A stretch of 64,000 nt of DNA, from positions 244,397-308,396 of the forward strand of contig DBYK01000001.1 in NCBI GenBank assembly GCA_002310135.1, written 5' to 3'. Under the pieces are notes generated by a model, which made no database searches, was not told the origin of the DNA, and was given only the letters and a program-made list of their open reading frames with translations. The translations under genes were made by a program, and so were the position numbers. The DNA is from Bacillales bacterium UBA1188. GTDB lineage: Bacteria; Bacillota_I; Bacilli_A; Izemoplasmatales; UBA1188. Positions 19,500-28,201 of this stretch are shown here, in pieces (the stretch's first letter is position 1; each line of letters begins with the position of its first letter).

Positions 19500-19523
19500 A
19501 AGAAGAGACACGTCTCTTCTTTT
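19498..19523. terminator. Bidirectional terminator hairpin between aroB and the convergent 129-aa ORF
   Basis: GAAGAGAC/GTCTCTTC palindrome flanked by A- and T-runs. Confidence 0.6.
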
Positions 19524-19911
19524 ATTCTTTTATATTATTTATTTCTTTATTTGCAACTTCAAGAAGTGCGGATAAGACTTTCATCATATCCTTAAATGAA
19601 TATTTTAATTCATCATCAAGAGATAGTGGCAATTTAGGTATATTTTCAATACCAATTAATATTTCAGGGAATACTAAATCTATTCCAATTATTTTAGTTG
19701 CACCTTCAGTTATTCTTTTTTTAGTATCATCATGAAGATTTAAAAATAAATCTTTTACAGTATTATTAACTTGTGAAGGCTTACCTAAAGCTTTTAGATA
19801 AAATTTTAAAGCATAAAATCCATTTATTAAAGCAGGATAGTCTTTTTCATTAGAATAAATATTATAGAAGTTATTTCCAATAGATATCAGTTCTTTTTTA
19901 AATATAGTCAT
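19522..19911 (-). CDS. Hypothetical helical protein (129 aa)
   Basis: ORF with a GGAGTAT-type RBS, co-directional with the CapF-like gene and 34 nt downstream of it. No recognisable motif. Confidence 0.45.
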   Translation of the reverse strand: MTIFKKELISIGNNFYNIYSNEKDYPALINGFYALKFYLKALGKPSQVNNTVKDLFLNLHDDTKKRITEGATKIIGIDLVFPEILIGIENIPKLPLSLDDELKYSFKDMMKVLSALLEVANKEINNIKE

Positions 19912-19944
19912 AGTTATTTATATACTCCTTATATCAAATATATT

Positions 19945-20751
19945 TTAATATATTTTTGAATAATAAAGATATAAAGAATATAATTTTTTCTTAAATTTAT
20001 CATTATTTATATTTATATGTGAATTATTCTTAAAATCATTTAATAAATTAATTATTTCATTATATGATTTTTTATATGTGTTTGGAATATATGAATATTT
20101 ACCATTAATATCATCTATTAGATTTAATCCATCATAATCACATCTTTTTTCTTTATTTTCTAATAAATCAAACATACCTTCTATAAAATCATCAATATAT
20201 AGATATTCTTTTTTAAGATCTCTATCTTTTATTTCATATTCTATATCATTTGCTACAGTATAACAGATAGTGCTTAAAGTAGAATTTGAAAATGGTTTAG
20301 CTTTACTCATCACATTAGGAAGTCTATATATTGATACTTTTGTGTTAAATTCTATGCTATAACTAAATAATAAATCTTCTCCCATCTTCTTACTTCTTCC
20401 ATAATCATTATCATACCAGTGAATAAGGGATGCTTGAATGGTAGATGCATACATTATAGGAGATTTATTATTATGTTTTTTAAGTGATTCTATTAAAGTT
20501 TTAGTAAAGAGATAATTAGAATTATAATATTCTTCTTTGTTAGTTGGTTTGAATACTCCAACTAAGTTGAAGATGAAATCAGCTTTAGATGAATATAAAT
20601 CTAAATCTTTTTCATCTCCTTTATCATATTCAAATATATCATCTATTTTTATATTAGGTCTTGATTTATTTATACCTTCTTTTATTTCTTTTAATCTCTT
20701 AACAAGCTCTAGTCCTATAGTACCTTTTGCGCCTGTGACTAATATATTCAT
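19945..20751 (-). CDS. CapF-like short-chain dehydrogenase/reductase (N-terminal SDR domain only)
   Basis: The sequence parallels the SDR half of staphylococcal CapF: MNILVTGAKGTIG, ADFIFNLVGV, MYASTIQA, YGRSKK, IYRLPNV, STICY. At 268 aa it lacks the C-terminal cupin half. Confidence 0.65.
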   Translation of the reverse strand: MNILVTGAKGTIGLELVKRLKEIKEGINKSRPNIKIDDIFEYDKGDEKDLDLYSSKADFIFNLVGVFKPTNKEEYYNSNYLFTKTLIESLKKHNNKSPIMYASTIQASLIHWYDNDYGRSKKMGEDLLFSYSIEFNTKVSIYRLPNVMSKAKPFSNSTLSTICYTVANDIEYEIKDRDLKKEYLYIDDFIEGMFDLLENKEKRCDYDGLNLIDDINGKYSYIPNTYKKSYNEIINLLNDFKNNSHININNDKFKKKLYSLYLYYSKIY

Positions 20752-20969
20752 TCTTAACTCCGTTCTTATTTAATAATTATCTTAGAGTTAGTTGTCTTTT
20801 AGTATTTAATAATATCTTTATAAAAATATATAATAATGTTTTAATAATTAAAAAAACAATATTTTTTGATGTATTATAAATATAAAATACGTCTTTTGTT
20901 TGTTTTAAATGTGAAAAATATAATTAAAAAATCAATATTTACAAAGAAAGATATTGAAAAAACATAATA

Positions 20970-21773
20970 TCATTGTATCATTATATTGCAAGATATCTTG
21001 TAAAATGCGACTTGTGAAAGACCGTCGGATGAAATAAAGCCGTTTGGATTCGATTTACCCAAGTGTAAAATTGATATTTGATTAAAGGCATATTTACGTA
21101 TGCTTTTTTCTATATTGCAAATATAGTTCTTCTTTTTAATATATGATTCAATAGAGCCTAAAGACAACATAATTAATTGTTTTAAATCATCTAATTTTAT
21201 ATCTTTATGTTTATTTTTATAATGTGCAAAATCATTTCCAATCCAAGATGCTTTTAATAATAGTTGTTTTGTTTCCTCATCAGGAGAATAACAATTGACA
21301 CATTGGGATAAAGTCATATTGGATATTTTCTCAGCGTCATTAGGATTATATTTGATTGCAAAATCCTTGATTAAAAATTCAAACGCTCTTCTATAACCAA
21401 CTCCTATAATCTCTTTACATCCTGCTTGTTCGGCTATATATGTATCATTATAAATATCGACAAATCTTTTGCTGACTTCTTTAATTTCATCAGAAAAATT
21501 CTTAGTTTGATTATTGCCAATTACCCTAAAAGGATGCAATATTTCATCATTAATTGTTTCATAATAAGAATCTGAACCTATTTCATAAAATGCAAAAATT
21601 AAGTCATCACATATAGGGCATTGATATGTGACTATAATACGATTTATATCATTGTATTTATAAATAAATTTATTTATTGTCTTAGGATCAATACCACACT
21701 TACATATAGAACAAGTATTTGGTTTAATAACTAAAAACGAGTTATTATTAACTTTAATTTTTTCTTTATTCAT
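20970..21773 (-). CDS. Zinc-ribbon + DUF4145-domain protein (defence-associated family)
   Basis: The N-terminus has CSICKC...CPICD (four Cys, zinc-ribbon-like). The C-terminal half has YRRAFEFLIKDF...ASWIGNDFAHY, which resembles the DUF4145 pattern (R..lE.l.kd ... GN..aH). Confidence 0.6.
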   Translation of the reverse strand: MNKEKIKVNNNSFLVIKPNTCSICKCGIDPKTINKFIYKYNDINRIIVTYQCPICDDLIFAFYEIGSDSYYETINDEILHPFRVIGNNQTKNFSDEIKEVSKRFVDIYNDTYIAEQAGCKEIIGVGYRRAFEFLIKDFAIKYNPNDAEKISNMTLSQCVNCYSPDEETKQLLLKASWIGNDFAHYKNKHKDIKLDDLKQLIMLSLGSIESYIKKKNYICNIEKSIRKYAFNQISILHLGKSNPNGFISSDGLSQVAFYKISCNIMIQ

Positions 21774-22027
21774 AAAAATTCTCCATTATAACTAATGATT
21801 TTATTTTTAGATATTAATTCTCGACTGTAAAGTAAAAACATTAGCATAATCAATAATTGTCATTTCTTATTATTGATTATACGTAAAACCTTTTTTGGAG
21901 CAAAAATAATTATGTTAAAAGAATCACTATCTGTAATTGCATTATAACATACATATGTTTCTTTATTAATAAAACTGCATAAATAAAATAACTACATTAT
22001 TGGAAAATTAAGCGTCAATAAAAATAT

Positions 22028-22053
22028 AATACCCTGATATATGTCAGGGTATT
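22028..22053 (-). terminator. Rho-independent terminator after the cyclase/effector genes
   Basis: 10-bp perfect stem AATACCCTGA/TCAGGGTATT with a 6-nt loop. A T-rich tail follows on the minus strand, about 70 nt after the stop at 22125. Confidence 0.7.
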
Positions 22054-22124
22054 ATTGGGCTATTTGTTTTTTAAGGTAGATAGTTGTATATACCTACAAA
22101 CTAACTTTCATTTTAAAGAACCAT

Positions 22125-22658
22125 TTAAAACACAAATACTACAAATATAATCATACACAATGTAAAGAAACCAAAACCAATAAGTGAATAAAAACCTGCT
22201 TCTAATAATTTGTGCTTTTCCTTGCAAATTTTATCATTAATAATTATTTGTTCAATAATGTCATCATCACTGTTGCTAAAAGAATCAAATTCTTTTTTAA
22301 AATCATCTTCACTCAAATTTGCATCAGCAACATCATAATAGTAGTTAATATTCAATTTATTATTTATGTAATTATCTCCATTATTCCTTTTCCTAGGGAA
22401 AATAACCAAAATAAATAATATCAGGGTTACAACTACAGAAATAATATATAAAATAAAAGAAATCTTGCATATTATTTTTGTGAATTCGTTAGAATGAATA
22501 ATAAAATTATATGAATCAAAGATGTTAAAATAATTAGACATTAGGGCAAACAAAACACCAACAATAGCTAAAAGTATCCCAGCTTTTTGATCAAATGATG
22601 CAATTTGGTTTTTTGTGTCTAATAAAAAACCATTTAAAATTTCTTTTCTATTGTCCAT
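22125..22658 (-). CDS. Pycsar-type transmembrane effector (PycTM-like)
   Basis: 177 aa. N-terminal LLDTKNQIASFDQKAGILLAIVGVLFAL resembles the Pycsar-effector (former DUF5706) signature. There are three hydrophobic helices in total. The gene starts 2 nt after the cyclase stop. Confidence 0.6.
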   Translation of the reverse strand: MDNRKEILNGFLLDTKNQIASFDQKAGILLAIVGVLFALMSNYFNIFDSYNFIIHSNEFTKIICKISFILYIISVVVTLILFILVIFPRKRNNGDNYINNKLNINYYYDVADANLSEDDFKKEFDSFSNSDDDIIEQIIINDKICKEKHKLLEAGFYSLIGFGFFTLCMIIFVVFVF

Positions 22659-22660
22659 AT

Positions 22661-23404
22661 TTAATCCTTCATTCCATTTTCAATCCAATTGTTGAATTCA
22701 GTATATATTAAATCAAAAGAATAAATATAGTCTCCCATGTATAATTTTTTTTTAGTAACATAATCGGAATAACAATACTTTTCATTAACTTTAACATCTT
22801 TTATATTATAATAGAAAGTTCCATCCATTATAATTGGTGAATTATTACTTCTGCTTCCCTCTGATGACAAATTTGATGCATTTACGACTGCAGAACCGAT
22901 CCAAATATTATCATTTATCCCAGTTCCTTTTTTACCTGCTTTAATAACCAAATCTTCAGATGCTCCTAATCCAATGCCAATCTTAAATGTTGGAAAATGT
23001 TTTTGTTCTAACACCTTATTAAACATTTTTTGAAATGTGTTAATTAGCACTGCATTATCTAAAATCCTTTCCAAATCTTCTTTATTAGGGGCTGAATAAA
23101 TTGCATATACACAATCACCTCTTATTCCAATTTGTCTATAATTTTTGTCGCTTTCTAAAATTCCAATTATTTCACTAGAAAATGCTCTCATTATACGTGC
23201 GACTTTTTCTTCTTCCCCACTTTTAAATAAGGATGATGAATCAACTATGTCGACAAAAATAGCACCGACCCAACTTCTTATTCCATTTTTAAAATTTAAA
23301 TCGTCTTCATTTTTAGGTATGGTATCACAATTTTCAATTTTTGTCTTAGAATCCAAAATATCAAGAATTCTTTTTCTTGATTCTTTATACATAAAATCAC
23401 TCAT
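22661..23404 (-). CDS. Class III nucleotidyl cyclase, Pycsar PycC-like
   Basis: 247 aa with cyclase-homology blocks: GAIFVDIVDSSSLF (metal Asp), GIRGDCVYAIY, and FKIGIGLG...DNIWIGSAVVNASNLSS. AAAGGAG RBS. Confidence 0.65.
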   Translation of the reverse strand: MSDFMYKESRKRILDILDSKTKIENCDTIPKNEDDLNFKNGIRSWVGAIFVDIVDSSSLFKSGEEEKVARIMRAFSSEIIGILESDKNYRQIGIRGDCVYAIYSAPNKEDLERILDNAVLINTFQKMFNKVLEQKHFPTFKIGIGLGASEDLVIKAGKKGTGINDNIWIGSAVVNASNLSSEGSRSNNSPIIMDGTFYYNIKDVKVNEKYCYSDYVTKKKLYMGDYIYSFDLIYTEFNNWIENGMKD

Positions 23405-23449
23405 ATTGTTTTTGCTCCTTTATGTTATATTTCTTAAATGTTGTTAACT

Positions 23450-24589
23450 TCATTCTAAATCATTAGTACTTATTCTTTCTATTAATAGTCTATTTTCTAG
23501 TTGAATTTTAGTAATGAATGAATTTGCCTCTTTTATTCCCAAAGAATCTGTTACATAATGCCTTAGAAGAGCAAAAATTTTATCATAATAATCTTGTTCA
23601 TTTTTTAAATTTTCTTCTTCACTACTGCCATAATCCGAAAATATAAAAATTAATTTTATGTTATTGTTATATATATCATAATAATTGAATAGTGAATAAA
23701 AGTATGAATAATCTTGTTCCCCCAATGAGTGACCAAAGAAAACAATATCATTTATATCGTTTTTAGGAGGAATATTAATCATTTTTTCGTGATTGTTAAT
23801 CTTTCGCCATGCCTTTGAAAATCTAAATAACTTATCATTATTACTCTCTGACTTAACATCATTACAATCAATTCCTATAATGATATTATTTTGCTCTAAA
23901 TTTCCATGAACTAACATAATGCTATCAGAATCTACAACATCTTTACTAAAAGGATTTGTATAATTAAAACTAACAATAAACAAACTACTGTTCAATACTT
24001 CATTAATTTTGTTTTCAATTTTTGCTATTAAACTATTTGCATTTGTGATGTATTTATTCTTTATTTTAATTTCTTCAGTTAGATAACTTGAAAAATCTTT
24101 TTCCATTTCTTTTAGTTCTCGAAATAATAATGATTCTACATCAAGTCCTTCATAAATATTATAATTTGCTTTTTTTAAATAAGATTGTACATAATAATTT
24201 ATATCGTATAAAAAGGAATCTGAATTATTTTTTGGAAATGAAAATGGACCAATATATAGAGGTCGAGTACTAAAATTATAAAAAAAATCTTCTATAGATT
24301 TAATTTTATTTTGCAATATTTCTTTAATAAAATATTCTATGTTCATCCAGTTATTTTCATTAGACACATTTATATTTCGAAAAAAATCAATATTAGTTCT
24401 AAAACCATAGTGAAGTAGTATATACCATATATTCTTTCTAATAAAAGTATGGTCATTTTTTTGATTATAGTGGTCTATAAAATCGCTGTATCTGCTTTTT
24501 AGTTTACATGCTAGGTCAAAGCCATTGCCTATCACTAGAATTGTATTTGGTTTTTCTGGCTTTTTGGATCCTATATCTTTGTTTATCAT
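23450..24589 (-). CDS. AbiH-family abortive-infection protein
   Basis: The N-terminal ILVIGNGFDLACKLKSRYSDF block and the later FFGHSLGEQDYSYF block match the two signature regions of AbiH (Pfam AbiH family). Confidence 0.75.
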   Translation of the reverse strand: MINKDIGSKKPEKPNTILVIGNGFDLACKLKSRYSDFIDHYNQKNDHTFIRKNIWYILLHYGFRTNIDFFRNINVSNENNWMNIEYFIKEILQNKIKSIEDFFYNFSTRPLYIGPFSFPKNNSDSFLYDINYYVQSYLKKANYNIYEGLDVESLLFRELKEMEKDFSSYLTEEIKIKNKYITNANSLIAKIENKINEVLNSSLFIVSFNYTNPFSKDVVDSDSIMLVHGNLEQNNIIIGIDCNDVKSESNNDKLFRFSKAWRKINNHEKMINIPPKNDINDIVFFGHSLGEQDYSYFYSLFNYYDIYNNNIKLIFIFSDYGSSEEENLKNEQDYYDKIFALLRHYVTDSLGIKEANSFITKIQLENRLLIERISTNDLE

Positions 24590-24809
24590 TGTTTCTTTCC
24601 TTGTATAATGTAATGTTTTTAGTGCTATTAGAAATAATATGACTTAAGTTTTATATAAATAATATGTGAAGCAAACATAAGTTTTTGTAAAAATCTTTAT
24701 ATTTTATGATTTAATCACTTATAACTTAAACAAATTCACTATCTCTTCTCATAATTTTTATGAAAATATTTTTTTGTATTTGTTATTTTCTAATTATTTA
24801 TTGTATAAG

Positions 24810-25931
24810 TTAGTTCTCCCATTCTTCATATTCTTTTTCTTCTAGAATATCAGCAATCCTTTCACAGGCATGGCCATCACCATAAGGGTTTATAGCTTTA
24901 GCCATTTTATTATAGTATTCTTTGTTATTTAATAATTCACTAAATTCTTTATATATTACTTCTTCACTAGTACCCACTAATTTTAATGTACCAGCTTCTA
25001 CTCCTTCAGGTCTTTCAGTAGTGTCTCTCATAACAAGAACAGGCACACCATATGCTGGTGCTTCTTCTTGTATTCCACCACTATCAGTAAGTATTAGATA
25101 ACTTCTTGCCTCAAAATTATGACAATCAAATACTTCTATTGGTTCTATTATATGAATCCTATCACAATCACCTAATTCTTCATCAGCTGCTTTTCTAACT
25201 AATGGATTCATATGTATAGGGTATACAGCTTTTAAATCTTTATGTTCATCTAATACTCTTCTTATTGCCCTAAACATATTATGCATAGGTTCACCTAAGT
25301 TTTCTCTTCTATGAGCAGTTATAAAGATTAATTTATTACTACCAACCCAATCTAATTCAGAATGATGATAATCATCAACAACTGTATGTTTCATAGCATC
25401 TATTACAGTATTACCAGTTACATAAATAGATTTAGGGTCTTTTCCTTCGTTTAAAAGATTTTGTTTAGCAAGTTTTGTAGGAGCGAAATTGTATTTCGCT
25501 ATTAAACCAATCCCTTGTCTATTAAATTCTTCAGGGAATGGAGAATATATATTATAAGTTCTAAGGCCTGCTTCAACATGGCCAATAGGTATTTGCATAT
25601 AGTAGCATGCAAGTGCAGTAACAAATGCAGTAGATGTATCACCATGAACTAACACTAAATCTGGTTTAATCTCTTCCATTGTCACTTGTATTTTATTTAA
25701 TATATTTGTGGTTATATCAAAAAGAGACTGACCAGGTTTCATTATCTCAAGATCATAATCTGGATATTCGTTGAAGACATCAAACACTTGATCAAGCATC
25801 TCGCGATGCTGACCAGTAGAAAGTAATATCACTTCCAAGCTATCTCTTTTTTTAAATTCTTTAACAAGTGGCATCAACTTTATACAATCAGGACGACAAC
25901 CTACTGTTAGTACTATTTTCTTTTTTATCAT
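24810..25931 (-). CDS. wecB: UDP-N-acetylglucosamine 2-epimerase (non-hydrolysing)
   Basis: 373 aa. GCRPDCIKL, STGQHREMLDQV, VHGDTSTAF, HVEAGLRT and TDSGGIQEEAP blocks. Confidence 0.9.
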   Translation of the reverse strand: MIKKKIVLTVGCRPDCIKLMPLVKEFKKRDSLEVILLSTGQHREMLDQVFDVFNEYPDYDLEIMKPGQSLFDITTNILNKIQVTMEEIKPDLVLVHGDTSTAFVTALACYYMQIPIGHVEAGLRTYNIYSPFPEEFNRQGIGLIAKYNFAPTKLAKQNLLNEGKDPKSIYVTGNTVIDAMKHTVVDDYHHSELDWVGSNKLIFITAHRRENLGEPMHNMFRAIRRVLDEHKDLKAVYPIHMNPLVRKAADEELGDCDRIHIIEPIEVFDCHNFEARSYLILTDSGGIQEEAPAYGVPVLVMRDTTERPEGVEAGTLKLVGTSEEVIYKEFSELLNNKEYYNKMAKAINPYGDGHACERIADILEEKEYEEWEN

Positions 25932-25934
25932 TGT

Positions 25935-27158
25935 TTAATCTCTTCTAAATATATCTCTTGTATATACCTTATCTATCACATCTTCTAGACATATATCATA
26001 TCTATTAGCTATTATCGCATTTGATTGTTTTTTAAATTCATCTAAATTATTTACTACTTTTGAGCCAAAGAATAATTCACCATCTTTAAGTGATGGTTCA
26101 TATACAATAACTTTAGCACCTTTTGCTTTAATTCTTTTCATTACACCTTGGATAGAAGATTGACGGAAGTTATCACTATTAGATTTCATTGTTAATCTAT
26201 AAACACCAATAACAACTTCTTTTTCTCTCTTTATATCCCAAGAAGCACTTGCCGTATAATATCCAGCAAGTTCTAATACTCTATCAGCAATATAATCTTT
26301 TCTAGTTCTATTAGATTCAACTATTGCTGATATTAAATTTTCAGGAACTCTATCAAAATTAGCTTTTAATTGTTTTGTATCTTTTGGAAGGCAGTATCCA
26401 CCATATCCAAAAGATGGATTATTGTAATGGGTTCCAATTCTAGGATCTAAACAGATCCCTTCAATAATTGCTTTTGTATCCAGCCCTTTTGACTCAGCAT
26501 AAGTATCAAGTTCATTAAAATATGATACACGTAATGCAAGATATGTATTAGCAAATAGTTTAACAGCTTCTGCTTCAGTTGTACCCATTAATAAAACAGG
26601 TACATCTTTTTTAAGCGAACAACTCTTTAATAATTGAGCAAATTCTTTTGCTTTTTCTTCTTGTTCTTTATCACACCCAACTATAATTCTACTTGGATAT
26701 AAATTATCTTCTAATGCTTTACTTTCTCTTAGAAATTCAGGAGAGAAGATAATATTATTGGTATTAAATTTTTCTTTAATAGTTTTTGTGTATCCAACTG
26801 GAATAGTTGATTTGATAACCATCATTGCATCTTTATTAACTGATAGAACAAGTTCGATAACTTGTTCAACTAAAGATGTATCAAAGAAATTCTTTACAGG
26901 ATCATAATTTGTTGGAGCAGCAATAATAACGAAACTAGTATCTTTATATGCTGATGCTCCATCTAGTGTTGCAGTTAAATTAAGATCTTTTTCTTTAAAA
27001 TACTTTTCAATATAGTTGTCTTGAATTGGACTAATTCTTTTGTTTACTTTTTCTACTTTTTCTGAAATGACATCAACAAGAACAACTTCATTCTCTTGAG
27101 AAAGAAGTGTAGCAATTGATAATCCTACATAACCAGCTCCAGCTACTGAAATTTTCAT
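25935..27158 (-). CDS. ugd: UDP-glucose 6-dehydrogenase
   Basis: 407 aa, near-collinear with streptococcal HasB-type enzymes. Blocks: [45 protein letters not shown]. Confidence 0.9.
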
Positions 27159-27160
27159 AA

Positions 27161-28201
27161 TTATTTACTTCCTTTCATATAATAATCATAGTACCATTCA
27201 GCAAATTTTCTTAAGCCTTCTCTTAAACTAGTTTTTGGTTTAAAACCAAAATCTTTTTCAAGTTCACTTGTATCTGCATAAGTAATTGGAACATCGCCTG
27301 GTTGCATTGGAACCAATTTCTTATGAGATTCAAAATCAAAATCAGGAGGTAAGATTTTTGCTCTTACTAATTCTTCTGATAATATTTGTACAAAATCTAA
27401 TAAATTTTCAGGGTTGTTATTACCTATATTGTAGATTTTATATGGTGGTATTGGCAATCCATCTTCGCCAGTTTTCTTTTCTGGTGCTTTACTCATTACC
27501 TTAATAACACCATCTACAATATCGTCTATATAAGTAAAATCTCTTTTACAATTTCCATAGTTAAATATTTCAATTGTTTCACCCTTTAATAACTTATTTG
27601 TAAAACCAAAATAAGCCATATCAGGTCTTCCCATAGGACCATATACAGTAAAGAATCTAAGACCCGTTGTTGGAATATTATATAGTTTACTATATGCATG
27701 GGCAAGGAGTTCATTAGACTTCTTTGTTGCAGCATATAGACTAACTGGGTTATCTACTTTATCATCAGTTGAGAATGGCACTTTCTTATTTCCGCCATAT
27801 ATTGATGATGATGAAGCATATACTAAATGTTCAACAGGATAATGCCTACACGCTTCTAAAATGTTATAAAAACCAATTAAGTTTGATTGAACATATGCAT
27901 CTGGGTTAATTATTGAATAGCGTACTCCTGCTTGAGCAGCTAGATTAACAACAATATTAGGGTGATATTTTTCAAAAATATCTTTTACTAAAGAAGAATC
28001 TGATAAATCTCCTTTAATAAAGATATAGTTGTCGTTCATAGAGTTCTTCAATCTTTCTTCTTTTAGTTTCACATCATAGTAGGAATTAAGATTATCAAGT
28101 CCTATAATCTTATTATTGTTCATCTTTAATATTTTATTAGTAAGAGCTGCACCAATAAAGCCTGCAGAGCCTGTTATTAAAATAGTCTTTTTATTGAACA
28201 T
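27161..28201 (-). CDS. UDP-glucuronate 4-epimerase-type NAD-dependent epimerase
   Basis: [35 protein letters not shown] and RFFTVYGP blocks are typical of the CapI/LpsL-type GlcA epimerases. Confidence 0.8.

Follow-up and report, generated by a model that had tools for sequence, protein, structure and literature searches.

Three genes on one strand, coding for a protein of the AbiH family, a Pycsar cyclase (PycC), and a Pycsar membrane effector (PycTM), lie closely packed in a 64,000-nt stretch of the genome of Bacillales bacterium UBA1188 (Izemoplasmatales; contig DBYK01000001.1, positions 244,397 to 308,396), denoted here as the window. This arrangement raises the question whether AbiH belongs to the neighboring cyclic-nucleotide system or whether two systems share a place without sharing a mechanism. 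An earlier analysis (the sequence-only reading) supposed that AbiH acts as a third component of such a system, with two systems simply stacked in one operon as the fallback, and it held that the three-component idea would fall if the adjacency of AbiH and cyclase genes did not recur in other genomes. A survey of gene neighborhoods revealed no independent recurrence. AbiH adjoins PycC in 0 of 63 informative PycC loci and in none of the four closest PycC homologs with readable surroundings, PycC adjoins AbiH in 0 of 13 AbiH loci, and the arrangement is encountered again only in a syntenic locus on the metagenome contigs L074 and L075. Since the adjacency does not recur, the idea of a third component fails the test set for it in advance, and the fallback is the reading that the evidence supports. 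The locus probably harbors two self-sufficient, known anti-phage systems side by side, with their juxtaposition being a lineage-specific packing accident and not a functional dependency.

The survey from the side of the cyclase encompassed one genome per GTDB species and yielded 73 PycC loci in Bacilli, Clostridia, and Mollicutes-type genomes. Those with at least 1.2 kb of upstream sequence were regarded as informative, and AbiH was sought by tblastn and with a hidden Markov model (HMM) built from 120 AbiH homologs. The four closest readable homologs, all lacking an upstream AbiH gene, are P0003 (64% identity), P0004 (61%), P0005 (61%), and P0006 (60%); P0002 (62%) is not among them. A distant member of the AbiH family was encountered solely in L038 and L059, where it precedes PycC by 3.3-3.6 kb. 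The two are set apart by a type I hsdR gene, so they share an island without being neighbors. Otherwise, the gene upstream of PycC differs in almost every locus. Same-strand neighbors that overlap PycC or are located 11-59 nt away include DpnII, DndB-like, N6_N4 methylase, BrxL, Eco57I-type, Abi_C, Bpu10I, and LmuB genes, and an integrase gene is also found upstream of PycC. In locus L095 (170-3691), a Lamassu system (MC2-domain protein; LmuB, PADLOC E 1.5e-95) precedes a same-strand PycC-PycTM pair with 23 nt in between. This gap is identical in length to that between AbiH and PycC on L074, so such spacing occurs between unrelated systems. Tight same-strand packing with PycC is not specific to AbiH. 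Because the same PycC family is packed just as closely with eight or more unrelated defense genes, the window provides a clear example that genes of a defense island need not share a mechanism even if they lie tightly packed on one strand with no terminator in between.

Some further details of these loci were recorded. In L038 (1324-7330) and L059 (969-7031), the slot directly upstream of the type I hsdR is taken by AbiH-family genes that are distant and differ from each other, while a Cys-rich open reading frame (ORF) of 76-77 aa and Pycsar follow directly downstream of it. L038 harbors in addition an hsdS-like fragment further upstream in the type I restriction-modification locus. The possibility of a hidden third gene, in the form of a small conserved ORF ahead of PycC, was dismissed, as the respective ORFs (71-100 aa) are mutually unrelated.

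The survey from the side of AbiH gives the same picture. PycC is missing from all 13 distinct loci in which 370 nt or more are available downstream of AbiH, and a scan of JGI metagenomes with the AbiH alignment yielded 13 loci, with PycC in none of them. Among 14 non-self AbiH loci, one harbors PycC, and this is the locus on L074/L075. It encodes the closest AbiH homolog (P0122, 45% identity), followed after 23 nt by PycC (P0053, 58% identical) and then by PycTM (35% identical), and it is the only occurrence of the trio outside the window. Upstream of AbiH, L074 retains a decayed 300-nt 3' remnant of a 2-epimerase gene with a broken reading frame, which is 82% identical on the nucleotide level to positions 24810-25109 of the window. 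This shared remnant establishes the synteny of the two loci. The rest of the epimerase gene is replaced there (L074:30-3431) by a 788-aa PHP-domain/ATPase defense-type gene (PADLOC PDC-M49A, Ppl); two small ORFs are also present.

In a neighbor-joining tree, the window AbiH and P0122 are sisters (93% bootstrap), and the pair is nested among stand-alone AbiH genes (enclosing clades with 92% and 99% support). Together with the synteny, the nesting of this sister pair in a stand-alone clade points to a single juxtaposition event, and one such event in the common ancestor of the two lineages looks like the simplest history. In the PycC tree, the window groups with P0053 and P0010 at 19% bootstrap, which neither proves nor disproves co-inheritance of the Pycsar pair; the contig of P0010 comprises 69 nt of upstream sequence only. 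Viral contigs of IMG/VR contained no confirmed relatives of AbiH or PycC, hence there is no sign of a phage-borne module in this collection. In the plasmid database, PycC homologs are found in 36 records and AbiH homologs in 51, with no accession harboring both among the matches listed; in two L. plantarum strains, the two homologs reside on different plasmids. A gene of 235 aa that follows the AbiH homolog on L100 was inspected as a cryptic cyclase and rejected, since it matches neither the PycC HMM nor any PADLOC model.

Several observations weigh against a mere accident of packing. The trio is kept in two lineages despite the divergence of its proteins to the identities given above, which is far more pronounced than that of the flanking epimerase remnant, and the gap between AbiH and PycC is short in both (45 and 23 nt) with no terminator in between. 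Linkage through such deep divergence means that some force may hold the genes together or that they may move as one cassette. In addition, the survey is limited to approximately 80 PycC and 15 AbiH loci, and many metagenome contigs are too short. Persistence and the missing terminator are in line with a rival reading, in which AbiH and Pycsar would be mechanistically independent but their co-operonic linkage would be selected, with co-expression, co-transfer, and a broader or synergistic protection combining NAD+ depletion with membrane damage. Precedent for this exists in Pycsar-type IV Thoeris operons: clade F Pycsar and type IV Thoeris form one operon in 107 of 149 cases, and the two act independently without cross-activation, yet in synergy (PMC13069673). 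This arrangement, termed Liu-DS6, resembles the window in that a Pycsar pair is co-operonic with a second, independent NAD/nucleotide-linked abortive-infection system. However, its association is frequent and its synergy was measured, whereas that in the window is rare, being confined to one lineage (0/63 PycC loci, 1/14 AbiH loci); moreover, neither the partner system nor the Pycsar clade is that of the window. Sister AbiH genes occur solo or paired with other systems, and with a single event seen twice, selection and hitch-hiking are indistinguishable. Selection for the linkage is thus regarded as unlikely, and synergy between AbiH and Pycsar as possible.

The reading as two stacked systems gains from the completeness of each of them. 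The second gene had been taken for a Pycsar-type cyclase, and this assignment is well founded. PycC matches the PADLOC model over its full length (E 9.9e-82; residues 2-245 on profile positions 2-234 of 234), and a profile of 25 homologs retrieved from the PDB the uridylate cyclase 8jsz (3.7e-6), 7r65 (2.5e-5), and the cytidylate cyclase 8jsf (3.8e-5). Both catalytic Asp residues are kept: the metal-binding D52 (FVDIVDSS) and D97 (RGDCVY) are invariant in the 25 homologs and coincide with the D...GD positions in the alignment to 7r65 and 8jsz. The Pfam family Guanylate_cyc (PF00211), which had been named for checking the assignment, gives only a partial hit below its cut-off (17.0 versus 21.9 bits; E 0.0045). 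As many PycC homologs carry a precomputed PF00211 match, the kinship to class III nucleotidyl cyclases is real but distant. Judged by the nearest solved relatives, the product would more likely be cyclic uridine monophosphate (cUMP) than cyclic cytidine monophosphate (cCMP).

The third gene was described as a 177-aa transmembrane (TM) effector, in agreement with its matches to Pfam PF18967 (E 5.8e-7; 30.3 bits, cut-off 27.2) and PADLOC PDLC02364 (E 6.8e-21) and with three hydrophobic stretches, which span approximately residues 25-47, 58-91, and 153-177. By analogy with its family, PycTM would disrupt the membrane. A PycTM-like gene adjoins PycC in most related loci, and the two-gene core is common to approximately 80 of them. 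As in Pycsar systems of the short-cyclase type with a TM effector, the cyclase gene is directly followed by that of the effector, and the metal-binding Asp residues are retained. The window pair shows no essential difference from known Pycsar systems; what sets it apart is the distance to other members (the best non-self match among 675 PycC homologs is 64% identical) and the AbiH gene 45 nt upstream.

Unlike the link between AbiH and PycC, another three-gene layout recurs across species. In at least 12 Clostridia species representatives (L022, L027, L028, L029, L032, L034-L037, L039, L040, and L059; e.g. L037:5998-8087), PycC and PycTM are followed by a second PycC paralog, and both cyclases of these loci match PADLOC PDLC02368 with E values of 1e-87 to 1e-90. 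The variant order PycC-PycC-PycTM is found in L002 (1428-3513).

The first gene had been assigned to AbiH as well, which is corroborated by a match to PF14253 well above the cut-off (E 5.7e-25; 89.3 versus 30.9 bits; profile positions 1-251 of 260), by the PADLOC AbiH model (E 9.3e-9), and by its signature residues. In an alignment of 30 relatives, all of which match PF14253, the invariant residues are G21-N22-G23-x-D25, N209-Y210, H228-G229, and G286-H287-S288-L289-G290, and the window AbiH keeps every one of them. The motifs GNGFD, FNYT, VHG, and GHSLG presumably occupy the positions of the sirtuin motifs GAGxS, TQNxD, xHG, and GTSL. A confident AlphaFold (AF2) model (predicted local distance difference test, pLDDT, 83.7; predicted TM-score, pTM, 0.84) displays a parallel Rossmann-type sheet, broken by a large helical insert at residues 81-196. 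Foldseek searches of the PDB with this model gave ThsA and SIR2-HerA as the top four matches, all of them weak (E 0.14-0.2; TM-score approximately 0.3). A match to the Pfam SIR2 family was not detected, a sequence-profile search of the PDB with AbiH gave no significant match, Foldseek against BFVD retrieved nothing useful, and NCBIfam names none of AbiH, PycC, and PycTM.

AbiH is an Abi gene dating from 1996 with no known trigger, and to our knowledge NADase activity has so far been demonstrated for no AbiH. The window protein resembles AbiH of Lactococcus lactis in its PF14253 match and its similar length. Its identity to plasmid AbiH genes of lactic acid bacteria is only approximately 25-30%, and its gene is located in a capsule locus instead of an integrative conjugative element or a plasmid. 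The AbiH family was placed in the immune SIR2 group ("SIRim"), and depletion of NAD+ was proposed as its mode of action (10.1101/2024.09.18.613514; PMC13064643). The window AbiH resembles this group in its presumed counterparts of four sirtuin motifs and in the modeled Rossmann-type sheet with a large helical insert, and NADase activity is predicted for it from homology and published work. AbiH is described as a one-gene SIR2-like system that conferred 5.7 logs of protection when cloned alone (10.1101/2024.06.14.598830). With identities to other entries of the databases searched of at most 45% (AbiH) and 64% (PycC), the locus contributes divergent additions to two known defense families.

These data bear on the proposal of an integrated system, in which AbiH would be the phage sensor switching on PycC or, alternatively, a second effector that depletes NAD+ in response to the cyclic pyrimidine. 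If true, it would provide the first mechanistic context for AbiH and add a SIR2 effector to cyclic-pyrimidine signaling. Tight packing in one probable transcription unit and the same trio on L074/L075 are in line with it, and SIR2-type effectors are nucleotide-driven elsewhere. ThsA, the nucleotide-activated SIR2 effector of Thoeris, serves as a conceptual model of SIR2 control by a small molecule; it was the top Foldseek match of AbiH (8bto, 8btp, and 7uxt), albeit a weak one (E above 0.1). However, ThsA carries a SLOG sensor domain, whereas Pfam detects in the 30 AbiH relatives no domain beyond PF14253, i.e. no domain for binding of cyclic nucleoside monophosphates (cNMP), no SLOG, and no other sensor domain, and none in the window protein, which retains all family-invariant residues. 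Further, the adjacency of AbiH and PycC is not conserved, the PycC-PycTM pair is complete without AbiH everywhere else, the closest AbiH relatives are stand-alone genes, and AbiH is active alone in published tests (10.1101/2024.06.14.598830). A three-component cyclic-pyrimidine system, which would exist only in a small and rapidly evolving group of gut Firmicutes, is accordingly very improbable.

The physical layout was described correctly by the sequence-only reading. The three same-strand ORFs and their gaps of 45 nt and 2 nt are located exactly as claimed (Table 1), and each of the quoted peptide blocks is found in the translations: ILVIGNGFDLACKLKSRYSDF and FFGHSLGEQDYSYF in AbiH, GAIFVDIVDSSSLF, GIRGDCVYAIY, and KIGIGLG...IWIGSAVVNASNL in PycC, and DQKAGILLAIVG in PycTM. 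The ribosome-binding site (RBS) AAAGGAG was traced to positions 23415-23421, 10 nt ahead of the PycC ATG, and the surrounding gap lacks a hairpin, as stated; together with the AbiH 3' end, it shows no structure above chance (RNA fold with a minimum free energy of -6.6 kcal/mol, z = 0.00). The terminator following the third gene is indeed the sole terminator-like site in positions 20800-25000, and it folds far better than shuffled sequence (z = -3.28).

Table 1. Features of the AbiH-Pycsar locus (positions in the window)
Feature	Position	Strand	Size	Basis and remarks
AbiH-family gene	23450..24589	-	379 aa	Pfam PF14253; PADLOC AbiH; putatively SIR2-like, predicted NAD+-consuming
PycC, short Pycsar pyrimidine cyclase	22661..23404	-	247 aa	PADLOC PDLC02368
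PycTM, Pycsar membrane effector	22125..22658	-	177 aa	PF18967; PDLC02364; hydropathy
AbiH-PycC spacer	23405..23449	-	45 nt	AAAGGAG RBS; no hairpin, no terminator-like site
Intrinsic terminator closing the unit	22026..22055	-		12-bp stem, 6-nt loop, T-run
Candidate promoter region upstream of AbiH	24640..24680	-		AT-rich block ...CACATATTATTTATATAAAAC...

Co-transcription of the three genes, which had been predicted from this layout, stands in part. The short unstructured gap and the single downstream terminator render it plausible, and the genes probably share one transcript, although PycC may have an internal promoter of its own. Promoter-like (sigma-70-like) matches occur at chance frequency in the AT-rich DNA (42 found versus 38.8 expected), so that they speak neither for nor against such a promoter. 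The 220-nt spacer between the UDP-GlcNAc 2-epimerase gene (24810-25931) and AbiH is also free of terminator-like sites; equating a missing terminator with one unit would therefore include the capsule operon, too. The 5' end of the transcription unit cannot be placed from the nucleotide sequence by itself. In a pairwise alignment of the epimerase-AbiH spacers, the AT-rich block upstream of AbiH aligns in part with the equivalent spacer of L074, which reads TTGATATAAT there. With promoter-like matches at chance level, this block is regarded as a candidate promoter of AbiH. The start of PycTM 2 nt after the PycC stop suggests translational coupling.

Relics of genes occur close by, and one or more of the three genes might itself be an inactive remnant in a decaying island: a short-chain dehydrogenase/reductase (SDR) of 268 aa on the far side of the trio matches only the N-terminal half of its model, and L074 carries the epimerase remnant. 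This explanation can hardly be upheld, as none of the three ORFs is shortened relative to its profile, invariant and catalytic residues are retained, and good RBSs as well as a proper terminator are in place.

According to the favored reading as two stacked systems, two autonomous abortive-infection systems would follow each other head to tail, forming a small islet of low GC content where the capsule operon ends on its 3' side. The first would consist of AbiH alone, which, with its putative SIR2-like Rossmann core and a large helical insertion, is predicted to consume NAD+ on a phage cue. The second would be a canonical two-gene Pycsar, in which infection leads PycC to produce a cyclic pyrimidine nucleotide; going by the family, this nucleotide would activate PycTM, and the membrane would be compromised. 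Transcription probably originates from a promoter upstream of AbiH, with read-through from the capsule operon as a further possibility, and would stop at the terminator, and translation of PycC and PycTM is probably coupled.

A long polysaccharide/capsule operon of the minus strand has the trio at its 3' end, downstream of genes for sugar-nucleotide enzymes (27161-28201, 25935-27158, and the epimerase gene). The GC content of the defense islet amounts to approximately 19-26% versus 28-32% in the capsule genes. Close relatives of AbiH repeatedly turn up within polysaccharide/capsule loci or at their ends, as AbiH does in the window (positions 19500-24600), and each time with other defense cargo. 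This varying cargo is reminiscent of a hot spot and suggests that the capsule locus of this group of gut Firmicutes serves as a defense hot spot with shuffled, independent cargo. In one of these loci (L077:2608-10567), the AbiH relative is accompanied by PARIS AriAB, DUF6577/AbiEii (AbiE-type), and an SLFN-type helicase, and in another (L096:559-5083) by a retron II-A and SoFic. In L097-99, it is found without any other defense gene; on L097 (3019-6612), AbiH lies between genes for a glycosyltransferase and a UDP-glucose dehydrogenase.

Rfam matches in the window are restricted to tRNAs. On the far side of the Pycsar terminator, a separate unit (20970-21773, minus strand) encodes a 267-aa protein whose N-terminal stretch is Cys-rich and resembles a zinc ribbon, and which matches DUF4145 weakly (E 5e-4, below cut-off); PADLOC and NCBIfam gave no match. 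The type I HsdR of L038 likewise has DUF4145 as its N-terminal domain, and the gene may be another member of the defense island. Further downstream, a 129-aa ORF (19522-19911, minus strand) matches no entry of any library used. Between these two, the SDR gene mentioned above (19945-20751, minus strand) covers positions 1-192 of the 372-position WbcJ/CapF-type reductase model and may represent a capsule gene that was truncated and left behind beyond the defense islet.

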